A DNA stretch of 64,000 nt from a virus (taxonomy: Duplodnaviria > Caudoviricetes). The position numbers and the translations under genes are program-made. The notes beneath the pieces were generated by a model. It was not told the DNA's origin, did not search any database, and saw nothing but the letters and a program-made list of their open reading frames with translations. Shown here one piece after another: positions 8,414 through 52,330 of the stretch. Positions within the stretch are counted from its first letter, which is position 1, and every line of letters begins with the position of its first letter. Where the stretch lies: IMG/VR virus record IMGVR_UViG_3300005512_000006, positions 1 through 64,000 of that record; one strand, 5' to 3'.

Positions 8414-10206
8414 TCTAACCTACTTTGATTGTCGTCTTTGACAACTTGAACTTTTGTGAGAAGAGGATGACTCCACTGGTGACTTACTAGATAAGTATTT
8501 AGAAACTCTTCTTTCAAAAGAACTTCTACTATCTTTTCTCGGCCTTGTTCATCCAAAACATTAATCACTTCGTCAAGAAAAAGAACGTTGATTTGTGACT
8601 TTGAAATACTACTCATAAGTTTGCGAATTGCAATCAGTGTAGCAGTATTTACTCTTGCTAGCTCTCCGCTAGAAAGAACACTAATGTCAACTTCTTTTCC
8701 ATTGTCAGTAATATTTACATTGAGCTTGTCGTTTGAAACTGCAAACTCGAGAGTAAATCTGCCATCAGAAAGCTCTGCCAAATACGTGTTTGTTAGCTCT
8801 TCCAGTTCTTTTACAAGATTCTCGATTTTATAGGCTAACAAGCCGTTCGTAGAGAATGCTTTCTTGAGAAGCTCCAGATGCATTGCTGTAGTTTCTACAC
8901 TCTCTAATTCTGACTGTGCTTTATTTAACTGACTCACAAACTCATCGGTCTGCTCTTGAATGACGGAAATACGAGTATTTAGCCTTTCTCGCTTTTGATT
9001 TTCGTCAATCAACTTTTTCAGTTTACTGCGAGCTTCTGTAATGTTTTGCTGAAGAGTGTCGTACTCCTCTTGTAGCTCGTCTGCATTGTAGAGTTCTATA
9101 GGCAGCGCGTGATCAATTGCAGAATACAGCTTTTCAAACTCGCTCTCTAGCTTTCTTTTCTTCTCAAAGAGTTCGTTATTTTCTTTAATCTCTTCTACAC
9201 GAGCGTAAATCTCTTTTGCCTGCTCTGTAAGTTGTGCAATTTTAGACTCTTGCTCTGAGACAATGTTCGACTTGAATTCTTCGTCGATTTCTTGTCCACA
9301 AGTGTAGCATTGATTACCTAGTTTCTTTGTTTTTTCAAGAACAGTTTCCGCAGCTTTTTTCTCTGCTCGAATCGCTCCAAGCTGGCTGGTTTCTTTCTCA
9401 TGAGATTGATACTCTGTAGCAGGTATCTTTGAAATCTCAGAGAAATTTAACTTAGAAAGCTGATCTTTATAGTGATTATTTCTCGAAATTATTTTATTGT
9501 TTTTGGAAATATTTTCAATTTTAGTCGAAAGACTACCGAGTAACTTCTCGTCTTCTTCCGTGTCGATAGAAATTTCGAGCAGAGGCTGTACCTCTGTAGT
9601 GCTCAATTTATTATCGTTTAACCACTTTTCAATGGTATTAATTTGCGAAGTCAAGCTAGTGACTTCGATGTTTACGTCTTTTGCCAGCTTTTTAAATACT
9701 TCAAAGTATTCAACATATTCTTCTAAGTTTAACAAATCAATCAGAAACTTTTTTCTATTTGTATCTGTTGCCGTTAGAAATTGAAGACTCGAGTTCGTAT
9801 TTTGATACACTAGCTGACTGAAAGTTTTGAAGTCAATACCAAGAACTTCTTGAATCGACTTGTAAGTATTTGTAGCTGTATGGGAAGAAATATCTTCTCC
9901 ATTCTTTAGAAACTTAACTTTAAGCGACGTCTTGCGATTTAAGTCAATTTCATACTCATCAGTATCTTTTGTAAAAGTTAGGTTAATTTTGTAACCTGCA
10001 TCTACATAGCGGTTTGGAACGTCTGCTTTCTTTACACCTTTTGAGTTTTTATTGTAAAGAACTTCTTCTAGTATAAGAGGAATTGACGACTTTCCAACAC
10101 CGTTTGTACCAACAATTTGAGTCAGTCCGCTCTCTTGAAGGTCCAGAACATTCTCTGGACCGTAAGAAAAGCAATTACTCCACGTTAACTTGTTTAGCGT
10201 AATCAC
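8407..10206 (-). CDS. SbcC/Rad50-like recombination ATPase, T5 D13-like
   Basis: Walker A GTNGVGKS, CYTC zinc hook, LSSGE signature, LFLDE; GTG start at 10206 after GGAG. Confidence 0.92.
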   Translation of the reverse strand: MITLNKLTWSNCFSYGPENVLDLQESGLTQIVGTNGVGKSSIPLILEEVLYNKNSKGVKKADVPNRYVDAGYKINLTFTKDTDEYEIDLNRKTSLKVKFLKNGEDISSHTATNTYKSIQEVLGIDFKTFSQLVYQNTNSSLQFLTATDTNRKKFLIDLLNLEEYVEYFEVFKKLAKDVNIEVTSLTSQINTIEKWLNDNKLSTTEVQPLLEISIDTEEDEKLLGSLSTKIENISKNNKIISRNNHYKDQLSKLNFSEISKIPATEYQSHEKETSQLGAIRAEKKAAETVLEKTKKLGNQCYTCGQEIDEEFKSNIVSEQESKIAQLTEQAKEIYARVEEIKENNELFEKKRKLESEFEKLYSAIDHALPIELYNADELQEEYDTLQQNITEARSKLKKLIDENQKRERLNTRISVIQEQTDEFVSQLNKAQSELESVETTAMHLELLKKAFSTNGLLAYKIENLVKELEELTNTYLAELSDGRFTLEFAVSNDKLNVNITDNGKEVDISVLSSGELARVNTATLIAIRKLMSSISKSQINVLFLDEVINVLDEQGREKIVEVLLKEEFLNTYLVSHQWSHPLLTKVQVVKDDNQSRLEW

Positions 10207-11122
10207 TAAAAACTCCAACAACGTCTTTCACAGTGGTTTCGGGAAGTTCAAGAATATAGAGCAAGTACTCTGAAAGCTCTTCTTGAATTGTCATTCCTTT
10301 ATCGAGAAGTAACGTAGCTTCAGAACTACGTTTTACCACTTTCTTATCGAGAAGCTCTGACGACTTCACATTTGCGAGTTCTGCCAGATCGCCTTCGATT
10401 TCGTAAATGGTGTGATGGTAATCTGTAGGTACCATTTCATTGGTGGAAGTTACCGTCTTTCTTAGAAGCTGAGGAAGTTTAAACTCTTTCCACTCCCACT
10501 CCGTGCCGTCTATGATTAGATACCCCGTCGAGACTTCAGAGCGATGAAAGCTCGTGGTCATCGGAGACCCCGGATAGACTATGTTTCTTTGTGTATTAGA
10601 GTGAGAATGCAAATCTCCAGCGTAAACAATCGGAAAATCACTAAGACGATCTAAGTCAACCTCTGGCTTCACATGAGGAGGAATTTCTCCCCGTACATGA
10701 GTATAAAGAGGCTTAGACTTATTGAGACTTTCTATCTGACCTTTCTTATGTAGATCACAATAGGGAAGAATACTAAAGTCGTCATACTCCCGAGTTTCAG
10801 CAATTACATCTACTCGAGGATTGATTGCTTTTGTTACTGCTGCAAGATTTGTGAAAAAAGTTTGATTCTTTTTCGTGGCTTCATGATTGCCTGGATATAT
10901 AAGGGTTGGAACTCTTACTTCCCGAATAAACGAGAAGTAGAGTTCCAATTCTTCAAGGGTTGGCATACGGTCAAACAAGTCTCCACCGATGATGTGCATA
11001 TCTACTGATTCGCTAGCTTCATGTACTTGTTCAAAGAACATACTATAGCGATTCTTGGCCCAGGCTACTGGAACATTCTTTTGCCCTAGCTTAATATGCC
11101 AATCTGCGGTGAATAGAATCAT
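10175..11122 (-). CDS. SbcD/Mre11-like nuclease, T5 D12-like
   Basis: ADWH, GGDLFD, GNHE, GDLH, YPGS. Confidence 0.92.
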   Translation of the reverse strand: MILFTADWHIKLGQKNVPVAWAKNRYSMFFEQVHEASESVDMHIIGGDLFDRMPTLEELELYFSFIREVRVPTLIYPGNHEATKKNQTFFTNLAAVTKAINPRVDVIAETREYDDFSILPYCDLHKKGQIESLNKSKPLYTHVRGEIPPHVKPEVDLDRLSDFPIVYAGDLHSHSNTQRNIVYPGSPMTTSFHRSEVSTGYLIIDGTEWEWKEFKLPQLLRKTVTSTNEMVPTDYHHTIYEIEGDLAELANVKSSELLDKKVVKRSSEATLLLDKGMTIQEELSEYLLYILELPETTVKDVVGVFSDYAKQVNVE

Positions 11123-46424: not shown

Positions 46425-46746
46425 GCAGTGTGTCCTCTAATCGTTGGATAAGATATTTAAGCTCTAGCTTAGGTGCTTTTTCCAACCCTTGCAGTCTCTC
46501 GGGGTCTGCACTAATCAAAGAAGATAGATTTGCAACTAACTCTTTTTTCGTCACAGGAAGTTCGCCCGACTTGCTGCGATAAACACGTTTTTCGTAAACA
46601 TTCTCCTTGGAGAGTTTACCAATAATCGACTTCTCACTCTTGTTGAGTTCCTGGGCTAGACGCTTAATTACTTCATCATCGTCTTTGTTCTTCAGGTACT
46701 CGTCAATAACGTAAGTAGTCTGCTCTGCAGTGTAATTAATAGACAT
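46390..46746 (-). CDS. T5 A2-like DNA-binding protein, paralogue
   Basis: NYT.EQ, KSIIGKLSKE.VY, SKSGE..KKELV, GLEKAPK. Confidence 0.65.
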   Translation of the reverse strand: MSINYTAEQTTYVIDEYLKNKDDDEVIKRLAQELNKSEKSIIGKLSKENVYEKRVYRSKSGELPVTKKELVANLSSLISADPERLQGLEKAPKLELKYLIQRLEDTLRETSTCDGQVL

Positions 46747-47545: not shown

Positions 47546-47859
47546 GCAACATCTCGCTGAATAGCAGCAGCCAGCTTCGTGAGGTCTGCTTTCGTAGCTT
47601 TTGCAAGAGAAGGCAGCTCAACTGCGAGTTTGTTTGCGATGAATGCCACAAGCTGCTCCTTACGAATCACAGGCTCGCCGGTCTTAGAAGTACGGGGCTG
47701 CGCCTGGTAAACGCCTTCGCGAGTGAGCTTGGCGATAATCGAACGAGCAGGCTTGTCGAACTCCTCTGCAATCGCGTCCACCGTCTCACGAGTAGGATTC
47801 GCGGTGTAAAGCTGGACCATACGCTCAACCATTTCTTCAGTGTACTTAACTTCGCTCAT
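47542..47859 (-). CDS. T5 A2-like DNA-binding protein
   Basis: KYTEE, RSIIAKLTREGVY, SKTGEPV.RKEQLV, SLAKATK. Confidence 0.7.
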   Translation of the reverse strand: MSEVKYTEEMVERMVQLYTANPTRETVDAIAEEFDKPARSIIAKLTREGVYQAQPRTSKTGEPVIRKEQLVAFIANKLAVELPSLAKATKADLTKLAAAIQRDVA

Positions 47860-48692: not shown

Positions 48693-49637
48693 TTACTCAC
48701 CATTCCACATTGCTTCCATTTCAGTCGGATCTACGGTATAACCGATAGCGTTCATGAAGTCAACCCATTTCATAAACACTTCTTTGTGAGTCTTGTCATC
48801 CATGTTAAACTTAAAGACGACTTTTTCATTTCCGTACTGGTATGTCCAAGTTATTCTCTGCTCAACCATATTCATCACTCCTTAGACAATCAGAGGCGCA
48901 TAGAAAATTTGATTCATATCAGCATCTTCGTCGGCCAACTCTTGCAGCACATTATCCCACTCATGTAGCGTGAAAACATTGAGATCATTCGTCTCTTGAT
49001 CAAAGAACATCATGTAGTTGGTGTTGCGCTCAACATGGAAAGCATCAGTAAACACTTCATCGCCATAGAACATCTCGACAACTTCAAAGTCGTACAACTG
49101 CTCAGCTACAATTTCATTCAGCTCGCCTGCATCAATCAGCGACTCACGATGCCGACGCACTTTCTCCGTCCATTCCATCGGCTGAAAGAAAGAGAACTGC
49201 GCGTCAGCTGCGTCAAACATTACTCGTACAATCATGCTTTTTCTCCAAATAACGAACTAACCGGGAAACTACCCTCTACACTATTTGCCCAACGGTCGAA
49301 ATCTTCAATAGGCTCGCTGCGATCAACTACGAATTCTTCCGCCCACCAACGCCACCGAAACAAACGCCCATCACATTCAGTGACATATGCCTCTCGCTCT
49401 AGGTTTCGAGGAACTTTGTGGCCTGCTCGTTTGAGCATAGTTTTAAGCTCACTCAAAGAGTAACCGTTTAACTGCTTTCGAGTAGGACGCTTCATTTTAC
49501 TTTCTCCACAAGCCACACCACATCTTTGGCATCAAACTTCATGAGCAGAATATAGCTTAGGGCTTGCTCTTTGGAGCAGCCGTCCTGAACCATACCGTAA
49601 TAAGCCGTTAGCATATCTAACTGGGCCTTCGTCATAA
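48693..49637 (-). CDS. Small early hypothetical genes (48693, 48882, 49232, 49492)
   Basis: RBS-led coupled ORFs downstream of the promoter at about 49666-49697. Confidence 0.6.
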
Positions 49638-49849
49638 TCTTCTCCGCTTTTCCAAAGTATGCGCATATTATACGCAAAGGAGTCTTTGGAGTCAAGATTT
49701 ATTTTCGGGGTATGTCGGAAGCAGAACGCACTGTATTTCGGGGGGCCACACACGACCTAAAATTGTCAAGAATTATTTGCAATTAAACTAAATTTTCAAA
49801 AATTATGTTGCCCCGCCCCGGCTTACCCCGAGACAACCGAAAATAAGCC

Positions 49850-49878
49850 TTGACAAACCTTGCCGGCCCGCGTATAAT
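49850..49878 (+). promoter_or_regulatory. Perfect sigma70 promoter with no clear downstream gene
   Basis: TTGACA-N17-TATAAT. Confidence 0.85.
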
Positions 49879-49983
49879 ATATGAAAATGGGGGAGAACGT
49901 GCGGTTCGGCGCAGGCGCGCAAATTTCAGTTAGCTTTCGCACTTTATTTGGCGCAGCTACGCTGCCCATTTTTGTAAAGCATA

Positions 49984-50012
49984 AAAAAGCCGGGGCAGTT
50001 GCCCCGGCTTGG
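49984..50012 (-). terminator. Terminator after the A2-like gene
   Basis: aaaaaagccggggc-agtt-gccccggctt. Confidence 0.85.
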
Positions 50013-50018
50013 TTCGGA

Positions 50019-50315
50019 CTACACGGCTGAGAGAAGGGCCTGTAGCGACTGCTTCGTAGCTTTCTCAAGCCCGGACAGGTTAGCGCCAACCTTCTCCGAA
50101 ATCTGCGCAACCAGGTCCTCCTTCGAGACAGCCGGACCGCCATTCTTGGACATACGAGCCTTGCGCTCATATTGAATGCCAGCACGAACTGCGGCAGCGA
50201 TAATAGCACGCGGCTTTTCACCAAACTGCTCAGCAAGTGCTTCTGCTTTTTCCAGGTTGAGAGGAGCTGCTGCCTGCATTGCTGCGAGTACTGCGTCGTC
50301 GAAACGAGATGCCAT
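50019..50315 (-). CDS. A2-like DNA-binding protein (close paralogue of 51404..51703)
   Basis: AEQFGEKPRAIIAAAVRAGIQYER, GLEKATK. Confidence 0.75.
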   Translation of the reverse strand: MASRFDDAVLAAMQAAAPLNLEKAEALAEQFGEKPRAIIAAAVRAGIQYERKARMSKNGGPAVSKEDLVAQISEKVGANLSGLEKATKQSLQALLSAV

Positions 50316-50488
50316 AATAGTTTTTCCTAGAGTCTCCGGGGATGCCCATTGCTTCCCCTATGTTTGAAAAGATATTATACGGAGGGCCGAGCAAAAAAGC
50401 AAGAAAAATTTTCGACCGTCTGTCGAGAGACATCGAAAGTTTTTCTTGACAACGCGCGTGCTTTCGTGGTACAATATAATGGGCTAGG

Positions 50489-50598
50489 TTTCGCACTTTG
50501 GTGCCTGCGGCACGTTTTTTAGGTTTATCACTTTCGCACTTTGGCGCGGAGCGCAAACTCAATAGATTGTTGACTTTGCACTTTGGCGCGAAGCGCGC
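50489..50598 (+). repeat. Three GCACTTTGG + mini-hairpin units at 43/42-bp spacing
   Basis: GCACTTTGG at 50493, 50536, 50578. Confidence 0.85.
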
Positions 50599-50610
50599 AT
50601 TTGATTGTCA

Positions 50611-50809
50611 AATGCAATAGTTGTTGAATGCAATAGTTGTTGAATGCAATAGTTGTTGAATGCAATAGTTGTTGAATGCAATAGTTGTTGAATGTAATAG
50701 TTGTTGAATGCAATAGTTGTTGAATGTAATAGTTGTTGAATGCAATAGTTGTTGAATGTAATAGTTGTTGAATGCAATAGTTGTTGAATGTAATAGTTGT
50801 TGAATGCAA
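50611..50809 (+). repeat. 16-bp tandem array AATG(C/T)AATAGTTGTTG, 12 full units plus a partial
   Basis: Counted directly; variant order CCCCCTCTCTCT. Confidence 0.97.
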
Positions 50810-50859
50810 CTAATTTGCGGAATGAGAATCATTCGCAAAAGACCGTTCGTCGGCTCGGG

Positions 50860-50934
50860 CTTGACTTTTGAAATTGGCATGGATATTGCAGGCCCCGCTC
50901 TTATGCAAGAACCGTGCCAATCTCAAAAGTCAAG
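50860..50934. promoter_or_regulatory. Inverted repeat carrying two facing sigma54 (-24/-12) motifs
   Basis: TTGGCATGGATATTGCA (+, 50874) and TTGGCACGGTTCTTGCA (-, 50904-50920); third copy CTGGCATGAAAATTGCT at 51152. Confidence 0.7.
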
Positions 50935-51403
50935 GATTATTTTGGAATAAGCATATAACAAAAAAGACTAAAAAACCTATTGACAGACCCCCGCCCGCTC
51001 GCGTAAAATCTCCCAAGAGGGGTGCGGGTAAAATTTTGGCGCGACCCCTGGTCGCTACCTTTATTATAGCAGCCCGCCCGCCCATTTGTCCAATTGTTTT
51101 TTTCTATCGAAAGGCCCGGACCCATTCAAATAATCAATTGGACAAACAGACCTGGCATGAAAATTGCTTGCGACCATTCGTCGGCTCGGCTTGACCTAGC
51201 TTCCGAAGTATGCTATTTTGGCGCGCGGCGAAGCCGCTATTTCCATTATAACATTTTTTGGTGCCGGGCTGTCAAGCAGTTTTTTTCGATGAAAAGCGCT
51301 TTTATCATCGAAAATTTCAATGATAAAAACCTTGCCTTTCTCGCTCTCGGGGGCCATAATGCTCGGGCAGTAAAGGAAAACGTTTCAATTAAGGAGTTTC
51401 AAT

Positions 51404-51703
51404 ATGGCTAGCAAGTTTGAAGGTGAGGTGATGGCTGCTATGGTAGCAGCTGCGCCCTTGGATATGGCGAAAGCTACGGCTATCGCCGAACAATTCGGGG
51501 AAAAGCCGCGTGCCATTATTGCTGCAGCAGTTCGCGCCGGTATTCAATACGAGCGCGCAGCAAAGCGTAGCAAGGACGGCTCGCCGGTTCAATCGAAGGA
51601 AGATATCGTGCGAGCCATTTCTGACAGGCTAGGCGTTAGCCTTCCCGGCTTGGAAAAGGCTACTAAAGAAAGCCTGGGAGCGCTTTTCAATGCGCTGGGA
51701 TAA
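51404..51703 (+). CDS. A2-like DNA-binding protein (pre-early candidate)
   Basis: AAGGAG RBS; TTGCCT..CATAAT promoter upstream; paralogue of 50019..50315. Confidence 0.78.
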   Translation: MASKFEGEVMAAMVAAAPLDMAKATAIAEQFGEKPRAIIAAAVRAGIQYERAAKRSKDGSPVQSKEDIVRAISDRLGVSLPGLEKATKESLGALFNALG

Positions 51704-51707
51704 CGTT

Positions 51708-51887
51708 ATGGGGTGGGTGGGCGCTTGCGCGCTCGCCCTCGCTCCCTACCATATGCCAGGGGTCAGGGGTTACTGGCTCGCTTGCGTAGGGCTCGCCCTA
51801 CTCACCACGCAAGCAGCCAGGCTCCGGGCTTGGAATTTGGTGGGCCTAAATATTGTTTCCATTGTTGGCTACTGGAGCCTAATATAA
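51708..51887 (+). CDS. Small membrane protein
   Basis: Hydrophobic; WNLVGLNIVSIVGY. Confidence 0.6.
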   Translation: MGWVGACALALAPYHMPGVRGYWLACVGLALLTTQAARLRAWNLVGLNIVSIVGYWSLI

Positions 51888-52330
51888 TGCTTATTTTTGA
51901 TTTAGATGGGACCGTGGTTTGCTCTCGCCATCGCCAGCTGGCGTGCCCCGATGGTTCCCTGGACCTAGACGCATGGCGCGAACATTCCACGCCGGAAAAA
52001 ATTGAGCAGGATTCGCTGCTTCCCCTGGCTCGCCTCATGCGCCATGCTCTCGCCACGGATAAGCAGGTGGCAATATGTACCGCTCGAGTTTTAGGTGATG
52101 CTGACAGGGCATACCTTCGCAAGCATGGCCTAGAAGCGCCAGTAATTCTGGCGCGCAGTGAAGGGGACAATCGTTCGGATGCAGAATTGAAGCGAGAAAA
52201 ACTGCTTTCCTTGGGAGTGGACCTGCGCGGCGTTACGTTCTATGATGACAATCACTCGGTTCTAGCAATGGCCCGAGAGTTGGGCATCAACGCCCTAGAT
52301 GCAACCTTAATAAATGAGGCTTTAAAATGA
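51887..52330 (+). CDS. HAD-family phosphatase (PNK-3'-phosphatase/nucleotidase-like)
   Basis: IFDLDGT, CTAR, D..LK, FYDDN. Confidence 0.82.
   Translation: MLIFDLDGTVVCSRHRQLACPDGSLDLDAWREHSTPEKIEQDSLLPLARLMRHALATDKQVAICTARVLGDADRAYLRKHGLEAPVILARSEGDNRSDAELKREKLLSLGVDLRGVTFYDDNHSVLAMARELGINALDATLINEALK

Follow-up and report, generated by a model that had tools for sequence, protein, structure and literature searches.

A promoter-linked, regularly spaced repeat module of an uncultured marine T5-like phage resembles the inner edge of the T5 injection-stop region in sequence and layout

The stop and restart of DNA entry, the target of the A2 protein and the nicks at fixed positions are questions that phage T5 has posed for decades, and the sequence module analysed here bears on them. 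On the T5 side, the copies of direct repeat D (DRD), palindrome J and nick 1 are already annotated and described. The nine DRD copies are treated in section 3.3 of Davison (bioRxiv 10.1101/866236), and section 4.7 of the same work presents A2 as a DNA-binding dimer that second-step transfer needs alongside A1. The T5 record places the 7.9% 'major DNA single-chain interruption' at 9748/9749 on the minus strand, and along the nicked strand ATTTGCAC is followed by four bases, the nick, GCGCAGG and an 18-nt palindrome. The ATTTGCAC stretch is part of DRD copy 1 of the nine, and the DRD copies flank the end of the terminal repeat at 10219 on both sides. The annotated T5 nick consensus is a purine, the cut and then GCGC, which is given as R/GCGCRGG in the part of PMC3517423 cited here. 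Upstream of the cut, GTAAY was found at a distance of 34-36 nt at all four distinct T5 major nick sites.

The DNA analysed in this study (the window) comprises bases 1-64000 of a 98,214-bp IMG/VR virus record, which the IMG/VR entry lists as linear and for which it gives no end repeats. Judged by its genes, the source phage is an uncultured marine relative of phage T5, a siphovirus; this assignment follows from the likeness of its major tail protein, a homologue of the T5 pre-early gene dmp, and its portal, tape-measure and replication genes. The major tail protein matched 908 phage records, all at <60% identity, and its best matches were T5-like Vibrio and enterobacterial phages (Demerecviridae) at 31-34% identity. 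The structural genes encode a portal, a protease-capsid fusion, the major tail protein, a tape measure and a collagen-bearing tail-tip protein, and the replication-type genes encode ribonucleotide reductase, an SbcCD-like nuclease, helicases and a split family-A DNA polymerase. The dmp homologue, a HAD-type 5'-deoxynucleotidase gene at 51713..52330 on the + strand, was detected both by tblastn with T5 dmp as the query (E 5.8e-16, 32% identity over 169 residues, at 51887-52324) and by Pfam (PF25109, HAD_PNKP, 29.9 bits). Genes run leftward from ~50 kb and rightward from ~51.4 kb, so that the repeat units described below sit in a 1.1-kb gene-free divergent tract. This non-coding tract (50316-51403) is bordered by two genes for A2-like proteins, with the dmp homologue further to the right, and a blastn search in distant mode with 49800-51400 gave no match among 50,697 phage records.

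Within the tract, a sigma-70 promoter (P50446; 50446..50475, + strand), composed of TTGACA, an 18-nt spacer with a TG, and TACAAT, scored 11/12 and reads into all three of the units that follow. A sequence-only reading of this DNA had proposed this promoter together with three units of ~43 nt, each ending in a mini-hairpin, and both the promoter and the units were confirmed. Exact GCACTTTGG is found at three positions of the 64-kb window and no others, 50493, 50536 and 50578, with spacings of 43 and 42 nt. In each unit, TTT(N)GCACTTTGG leads into G(C/T)GC and a stem of 4-5 bp closed by a 3-nt loop. Unit 1 (50489..50521, + strand) comprises a 16-nt motif at 50489-50504 and a hairpin at 50501-50513 (5 bp, loop TGC; DNA fold -4.4 kcal/mol) with a T-run after it, the hairpin and T-run together being terminator-like. 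Unit 2 (50532..50554, + strand) has its motif at 50532-50547 and its hairpin at 50544-50554 (4 bp, loop GGA), and unit 3 (50574..50598, + strand) has the TTTGCAC variant of the motif at 50574-50589 and a hairpin at 50586-50598 that forms either 5 bp with loop AAG or 4 bp with loop GAA (DNA fold -6.3 kcal/mol). The same units appear as a 22-nt repeat family at 50490, 50533 and 50575, again spaced by 43 and 42 nt, in which the copies are 73, 100 and 91% identical to the reference copy. When one mismatch to GCACTTTGG was allowed, 15 occurrences were observed in the 64-kb window versus 13.8 expected; therefore, only the cluster of exact copies is meaningful.

Unit-like copies were also found outside the main array, at 49903-49965, 51033-51055 and 51217-51237, all on the + strand and each with a promoter-like site before it. 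On the left, a consensus-perfect promoter (49850-49878, + strand, 12/12) is followed by two degenerate + strand units up to 49965, namely TTCGGCGCAGG at 49903-49913, with TTYGGCGC at 49905, and a copy at 49931-49965, with TTYGGCGC at 49947 and a hairpin at 49953-49965. The latter is the further copy that had been noticed near 49934, and the degenerate units at 49850..49965 fall in repeat families D3 and D7. On the right, the + strand element at 50980..51055 combines a promoter (50980-51009), TTTTGGCGC and a hairpin at 51041-51055 (6 bp, 3-nt loop), and that at 51191..51237 (+ strand, family D5) combines a weaker promoter (51191-51219) that overlaps TTTGGCGC with the hairpin expected near 51226, which is present at 51225-51237 (5 bp, loop GAA). 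TTYGGCGC occurs nine times on the + strand of the 98-kb genome, and six of these occurrences lie between 49905 and 51224. Downstream of the units lies a Fur-box-like palindrome with its core GAGAATCATTC at 50824..50834, in the same order as in T5, and a 16-nt tandem array of 12.4 copies (50611..50809) fills the stretch between unit 3 and this palindrome.

Relatives of the array were collected from two IMG/VR motif scans, which gave at least 172 motif clusters, at least 39 of them with two or more units. Among the matches listed, these represent at least 34 unique arrays and at least 75 unique units, from 35 loci including the window; it is on these relatives, which carry the same motif, that the case for more than chance in the window rests. 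The conservation in relatives that the sequence-only reading had called for was thus found, and it is the primary sequence that is kept. The consensus of the 75 unique units runs CACTT, CACTT, T-N-G, CACTT, Y-G and GCGC, often with AGR next, which places the CACTT pentamers ~20, 15 and 7 nt upstream of the GGCGC(AGR) block. Of the 73 units with enough flank among the matches listed, 68 keep GCGC; a YACTT begins at -7 in 68 units, at -20 in 42 and at -15 in 29. The units are phased, with a spacing of mostly 41-43 nt and of 51-55 nt in two loci. The linkage to a promoter is conserved as well: in 23 of 31 arrays, a sigma-70 promoter scoring at least 10/12 precedes the array by no more than 110 nt on the same strand, versus an equally strong promoter in antisense in 2/31 and downstream in 7/27, three of the 34 arrays having been left out as too near the locus end. 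Therefore, the description of the units as promoter-driven gained support from the relatives. The -10 element of the promoter-linked arrays is often 37-41 nt from the motif, eight of the 31 arrays are without a nearby strong promoter, and the base composition of the arrays is mildly biased (C 26% vs G 20%).

Searches with the array or its motif in other collections gave the following results. The 151-nt array from locus L007 gave only two chance-level matches (E 6) among 50,697 phage records, and no cultured phage record holding an array was found among them. The pattern TTKCAC-N4-GYGC was present in T5 only and absent from three records of T5-like Vibrio and Erwinia phages. Furthermore, a motif scan of 185,579 prokaryote genomes gave, among the 120 matches listed, a single chance-level match per genome and no arrays. 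In four DNA sequencing runs, relatives appeared only as fragmentary contigs.

The contribution of the hairpins was assessed by folding and by comparison of the units. As single-stranded DNA, the three mini-hairpins of the window have folding energies of -3.9 to -6.3 kcal/mol, only a modest advantage over shuffles (z -1.2 to -2.0). The window is atypical in having a hairpin in all three units: a perfect stem of at least 4 bp built from the GGCGC block was found in 28 of the 75 units, versus 6.4 +/- 2.3 (max 13) in 200 flank shuffles, and was missing in 47. Often the GGCGC(AGR) block forms the 5' side of an inverted repeat of 4-7 bp around a 3-nt centre; the loop measures 3 nt in 18 of the 28 hairpins and 5 nt in one, stem positions five and six change in compensating fashion between loci, and the last unit of the array carries a stem in 18/34. 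The imperfect stems are too few for counting a wobble-pair asymmetry (RNA versus DNA hairpin). At the RNA level, RNAalifold on 18 two-unit arrays gave no conserved structure (-3.87 kcal/mol, 4 invariant pairs, 0 covarying), so that this test did not show the covariation looked for in relatives, and the 130-nt RNA from the predicted start folded no better than shuffles (z -0.88). An Rfam search at E up to 10 over 49000-52000 returned chance-level microRNA and sRNA rows only, none of them on the units. Since the hairpin is optional and no RNA fold is conserved, the conserved feature is the primary sequence, and the hairpin is an accessory feature, frequent but optional. The idea of a structural DNA signal, raised in the sequence-only reading, is compatible with the enrichment of hairpins (28/75 vs 6.4 in shuffles), but it holds for an accessory feature only, most units being without a hairpin; the special GNA triloop described there was not supported, as it fits one or two of the three + strand loops in the window and, on the unit strand, 2 of the 18 three-base loops in relatives.

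When the T5 nick strand was compared with the units, a gapless alignment was obtained in which the TTT(N)GCAC, four bases, GCGC and hairpin of the units stand opposite the ATTTGCAC, four bases, nick, GCGCAGG and palindrome of T5. The core matches T5 DRD at ~8 of 10 bases, with all copies on one strand; the flanks differ, and the units show no blastn-level similarity to T5. The resemblance extends to the surroundings: the array loci and the T5 injection-stop region share DnaA-box pairs, a 17-nt palindrome and 16-25-nt Fur-box-like palindromes, and a Fur-box-like palindrome lies within 400 nt downstream in 12 of 30 arrays and upstream in 0/30, its order and orientation being as in T5. By these sequence comparisons, the marine module appears to be the counterpart of T5 DRD copy 1, palindrome J and major nick 1, which together form the inner injection-stop edge. 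For this link to T5, synteny is stronger evidence than the test of a nick-site matrix, which was designed after the fact, drew solely on the 45-nt upstream flanks of the marine units and was scored on 398 T5 GCGC sites. The matrix ranked 9748/121279 second and third and 78573 fourth among the 398, and the nick sites 39746 and 22336 ranked 137 and 201, with all scores negative; for these reasons the likeness to nick sites is only partial. Measured against R/GCGCRGG, unit 2 (G|GCGCGGA) fits at 6/7 positions and unit 3 at 5/7, unit 1 has GTGC, and an exact fit was found in 13 of the 73 units of relatives. Supportively, GTA occurs at -39 to -32 in 28 of the 73 marine units, versus 0-11 in other 8-nt windows.

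The genes beside the array encode a family of small helical proteins. The product of 50019..50315 (- strand, 98 aa), divergent from P50446, is a candidate binder of the units, and a second A2-like paralogue (51404..51703, + strand, 99 aa) is 67% identical to it. Of the 30 array loci, 27 encode a member of this family, its gene often being divergent from the array promoter; in the three loci without such a gene the array lies at the locus end. On sequence, its resemblance to T5 A2 is weak: the family profile aligned with T5 A2 over 82 columns at 29% identity (E 0.023, hhalign probability 2%), and BLASTP of the flanking protein against T5 A2 gave E 2.2. The AlphaFold model of the A2-like protein has a mean pLDDT of 80, and VIA-align suggested that residues 1-51 of this model may resemble three-helix DNA-binding and NuoE-like domains at Z 4.3-5.7, which are weak values for a common arrangement. 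A Foldseek search of the model against the PDB returned nothing at E up to 0.001, a sequence profile search of the PDB had a best E of 0.13, and no related locus was found in a search with the 98-aa protein.

We tentatively favor, with confidence somewhat short of even, the reading that the units form an array of DNA sites, in phase with one another, that a phage protein recognizes, this protein being an A2-like binder or a T5-type nickase, and that the array is homologous to DRD, palindrome J and nick 1. The units would then be copies of a conserved non-coding module of an uncultured marine T5-like clade, and, being the marine version of the T5 DRD, palindrome J and first-nick block, they are probably landing sites for protein on DNA and not decoy RNA. 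A spacing of 41-43 bp is ~four helical turns, and the sites would therefore face one side of the helix. One candidate binder would be the A2-like helical proteins, whose genes accompany nearly every array; a second would be a T5-type nicking enzyme, which may cut the + strand as G|GCGC at 50500|50501, 50543|50544 and 50585|50586. Since the array takes up the initial ~130 nt of the transcript from a pre-early sigma-70 promoter, a bound protein and transcription would affect each other. Action on DNA, the identity of the binder and nicking are what we infer from these comparisons.

The main alternative, less likely but of appreciable weight, is that the units act as an RNA element in the nascent pre-early transcript, whether for Rho-type loading or attenuation, as an antitermination or processing leader, or as a short protein-binding RNA. 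Such an element would be a pyrimidine-rich site with a 13-nt period, in which the GC hairpins would punctuate single-stranded repeats. Rho covers ~13 nt per subunit, CACTT at -20 and -7 is spaced by 13 nt, and lambda boxA resembles CGCACUUU. This reading is further consistent with the strong same-strand promoter within 110 nt upstream in 23/31 arrays versus 2/31 in antisense, with the enrichment of hairpins, with the hairpin and T-run that close unit 1 and the last units of several relatives, and with the orientation of all unit-like elements of the window along the pre-early genes. The promoter linkage of 23/31 arrays fits a role at the RNA level equally as one at the DNA level. However, the RNAalifold result on 18 arrays (4 invariant and 0 covarying pairs) and the eight of 31 arrays without a nearby strong promoter together disfavor an RNA structure, and the 130-nt RNA was not distinguished from shuffles (z -0.88). 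The excess of C over G is only mild (26% vs 20%), the T5 counterpart is not promoter-proximal, most arrays are without a terminator, and the loops are of 3 nt, unlike the pentaloops of boxB. A lambda-type nut site was rejected, given a 5-nt loop in 1/28 hairpins against a 3-nt loop in 18/28 and no conserved RNA structure. Were the units to function as RNA, they would represent a new type of promoter-proximal leader, in phages that as a family depend entirely on the RNA polymerase of the host.

Returning to recognition sites on DNA, it is conceivable, if rather improbable, that the units are cis-acting 'restart' sites of a two-step DNA entry, at which docking of an A2-type protein releases the injection stop and shuts the pre-early promoters. 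A2-type proteins made from the first-entered DNA would dock on the in-phase units of the stalled DNA, either alone or with a T5-type nickase that would cut G|GCGC, the hairpin marking the site, and the shut-off would hit those pre-early promoters that read through the array. If this holds, the nine DRD copies of T5 would be the long-sought binding sites of A2.

A role at a packaging or terminal-repeat boundary, in which the units would be bound by terminase or by a nuclease that forms the ends, and would mark where a long terminal repeat has its inner edge, is doubtful. A similar boundary role has been proposed for the T5 DRD copies that straddle the left terminal repeat end. Direct-repeat arrays are typical of terminase sites, the T5 copies lie on both sides of 10219, and many arrays are a few hundred bases from contig or locus ends, including the match in a 104-kb contig (locus L006); this nearness proves little, because assemblers also break contigs at repeats. 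Against such a boundary, the window's own contig is unbroken at the units, and there are several arrays per genome, each tied to a promoter.

The sequence-only reading had offered a decoy-RNA array as its second possibility, with processed RNAs of ~43 nt mimicking a type III antitoxin or a host CRISPR repeat, and this found no support and is very improbable. Tandem units of ~43 nt behind a promoter, with a small hairpin in each, are what such an array would look like. However, the units match no Rfam family at E up to 10, are non-identical (73-91% over 22 nt), are followed by no endoribonuclease-like ORF, and have their conserved part outside the hairpin, with no conserved fold; the scan of prokaryote genomes likewise gave chance-level single matches and no arrays among the matches listed. 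Antitoxin repeats of the ToxI kind were rejected, as the units are followed by the 16-nt array and more promoters and by no ORF of toxin kind, and are 73-91% alike; the Rfam CRISPR repeats gave no match to the units. The least probable reading, that the units are single-stranded hairpin promoters of the N4 type for an injected virion RNA polymerase, draws on stems of 4-5 bp, 3-nt loops with a central purine on the + strand in all three units and conserved flanks, which we take to match N4 early promoters, and fails on the absence of a giant or T7-like RNA polymerase gene among all ORFs of at least 150 aa (those >700 aa are tail fibre, tape-measure and tail-tip proteins), on the T5-like siphovirus nature of the phage, and on the optional hairpin, lacking in 47/75 units of the family. 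By eye, the GG/GC spacings misfit the -24/-12 of a sigma-54 promoter. A DnaA box was also rejected, since the half-site is unlike TTWTNCACA, the consensus quoted in section 3.3.3 of Davison (bioRxiv 10.1101/866236); perfect DnaA boxes lie elsewhere in relatives, and none was found in 49700-51500 of the window.

Compared with the features already described in T5, four points appear to be new: a distant marine clade with a nick-type block in its units (GCGC in 68/73), the regular 41-43-nt spacing, the conserved linkage to a promoter, and the GTA element common to the marine units and the T5 nick sites. A literature search found no description of a function of the DRD repeat, of the marine motif or of its new features.

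Among systems outside the T5 group, the lambda nut and HK022 put sites combine a short conserved linear element with a small GC hairpin and lie just beyond early promoters, within a control region that is divergent, and the marine module is alike in all these respects. They differ from it in that their hairpins have pentaloops, whereas those here have 3-nt loops, the units stand in tandem, and no RNA fold is conserved. The N4 hairpin promoters resemble the units in the short GC stem, the 3-nt loop with a central purine and the conserved flanks.

From T5 itself, several differences were observed. In T5, GCGC and the palindrome are found in the first of the nine DRD copies only, whereas the marine units carry them throughout the array of the window; the T5 copies are spaced irregularly (25-81 nt and more), in contrast to 41-43 nt in the marine arrays; and the 300 nt around them contain no promoter above 9/12 on the matching strand, whereas the marine arrays are mostly promoter-proximal. 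The T5 flank GTCGG is replaced by CACTT pentamers in the marine units, and the window, unlike T5, has a 16-nt tandem array and no DnaA boxes. The T5 major nick sites are dispersed singly over the genome, whereas the putative marine sites are clustered in tandem in one region. On the other side, the tract resembles T5 Repeat Region 3 as a gene-free tract beside pre-early genes (dmp, A2-like). A core like the (A/T)TT(T/C)GCAC of DRD, alike at ~8 of 10 bases, recurs in one direction, and four bases separate it from GCGC(A/G)G in both; a palindrome begins at GCGC, as in palindrome J, in units 1-3 and in 28/75 units of relatives; and G|GCGC follows a purine, as at the T5 nick sites, in 68/73 marine units. 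Fur-box-like palindromes lie just downstream in both, and DnaA-box pairs lie nearby in relatives, with none in the tract of the window. Collectively, the marine clade presents a cleaner form of the T5 module, with a nick-type GCGC block, a spacing of ~four turns, a pre-early promoter and A2-like genes alongside, and comparison of the marine and T5 forms defines a candidate recognition site of ~45 nt.

A shared upstream sequence was found at the major nick sites of T5, the annotated single-chain interruptions with the consensus R/GCGCRGG. In all four distinct annotated sites (9748, 22336, 39746, and 78573, minus strand, in the T5 loci L041, L042, and L151), a GTAAY motif precedes the nick by 34-36 nt, followed in three of the four by TCG within a few bases. 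This arrangement suggests that the T5 nicking activity uses a bipartite recognition site of ~45 nt. No mention of this pattern was found in the portions of the T5 literature consulted.

T5 and the marine relatives also have in common palindromes of the AAATGAGAATCATTCTCATTT kind, which match over 16-25 nt between the T5 injection-stop region (9560-9710 in L041) and the relatives (many IMG/VR loci), and which, by the Fur-box consensus, resemble strong Fur sites; the window has one at 50824-50834. Between unit 3, the last of the ~43-nt-spaced repeats, and this palindrome in the window, 12.4 tandem copies of a 16-nt sequence, with 95% matches, begin immediately past unit 3 and fill 50611-50809; no counterpart of this array was found among the relatives' sequences examined. 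Beyond the palindrome, the repeat search returned two long inverted repeats, one at 50860-50934 with 31-nt arms (87% complementary) and a second at 51085-51146 with 19-nt arms (89% complementary); the Rfam matches at the former were to microRNAs, symmetric, and of the chance type.

On the other side of the units, promoter scoring identified a perfect-consensus rightward promoter (12/12) starting at 49850, within the stretch 49850-50015, and this promoter reads across two degenerate units and then into gene 50019-50315, which it meets convergently at its 3′ end. At 49987-50010 there is a hairpin that resembles a terminator, with its T-run on the opposite strand. In a relative's contig from one marine run, the sequence corresponding to 49892 is joined directly to that of 50572, so that both the gene 50019-50315 and P50446, the sigma-70 promoter ahead of the units, are missing. 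This gene belongs to the A2-like family of small helical proteins, and two more distant members were detected by tblastn on the minus strand at 46432-46743 (E 2e-08) and 47557-47847 (E 3e-34), bringing the paralogues in this phage to four.

Among the matches listed from the IMG/VR motif scans, many arrays of equivalent units lie at most a few hundred bases from a locus or contig end (L006, L013, L019, L020, L055, L075, L121, L125, L137, and L140), including one on a 104-kb contig. This nearness could mean either that assembly broke off at the repeats or that the DNA truly ends there. Perfect DnaA boxes (TGTGGATAA), in pairs or triplets, adjoin the arrays in the relatives L005 (~940-990, in unit orientation), L006, L030, L060, and L087, and none occurs in the window at 49700-51500. 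The relatives' DnaA boxes match the IRD′/IRC′ boxes of T5 over 20-24 nt.
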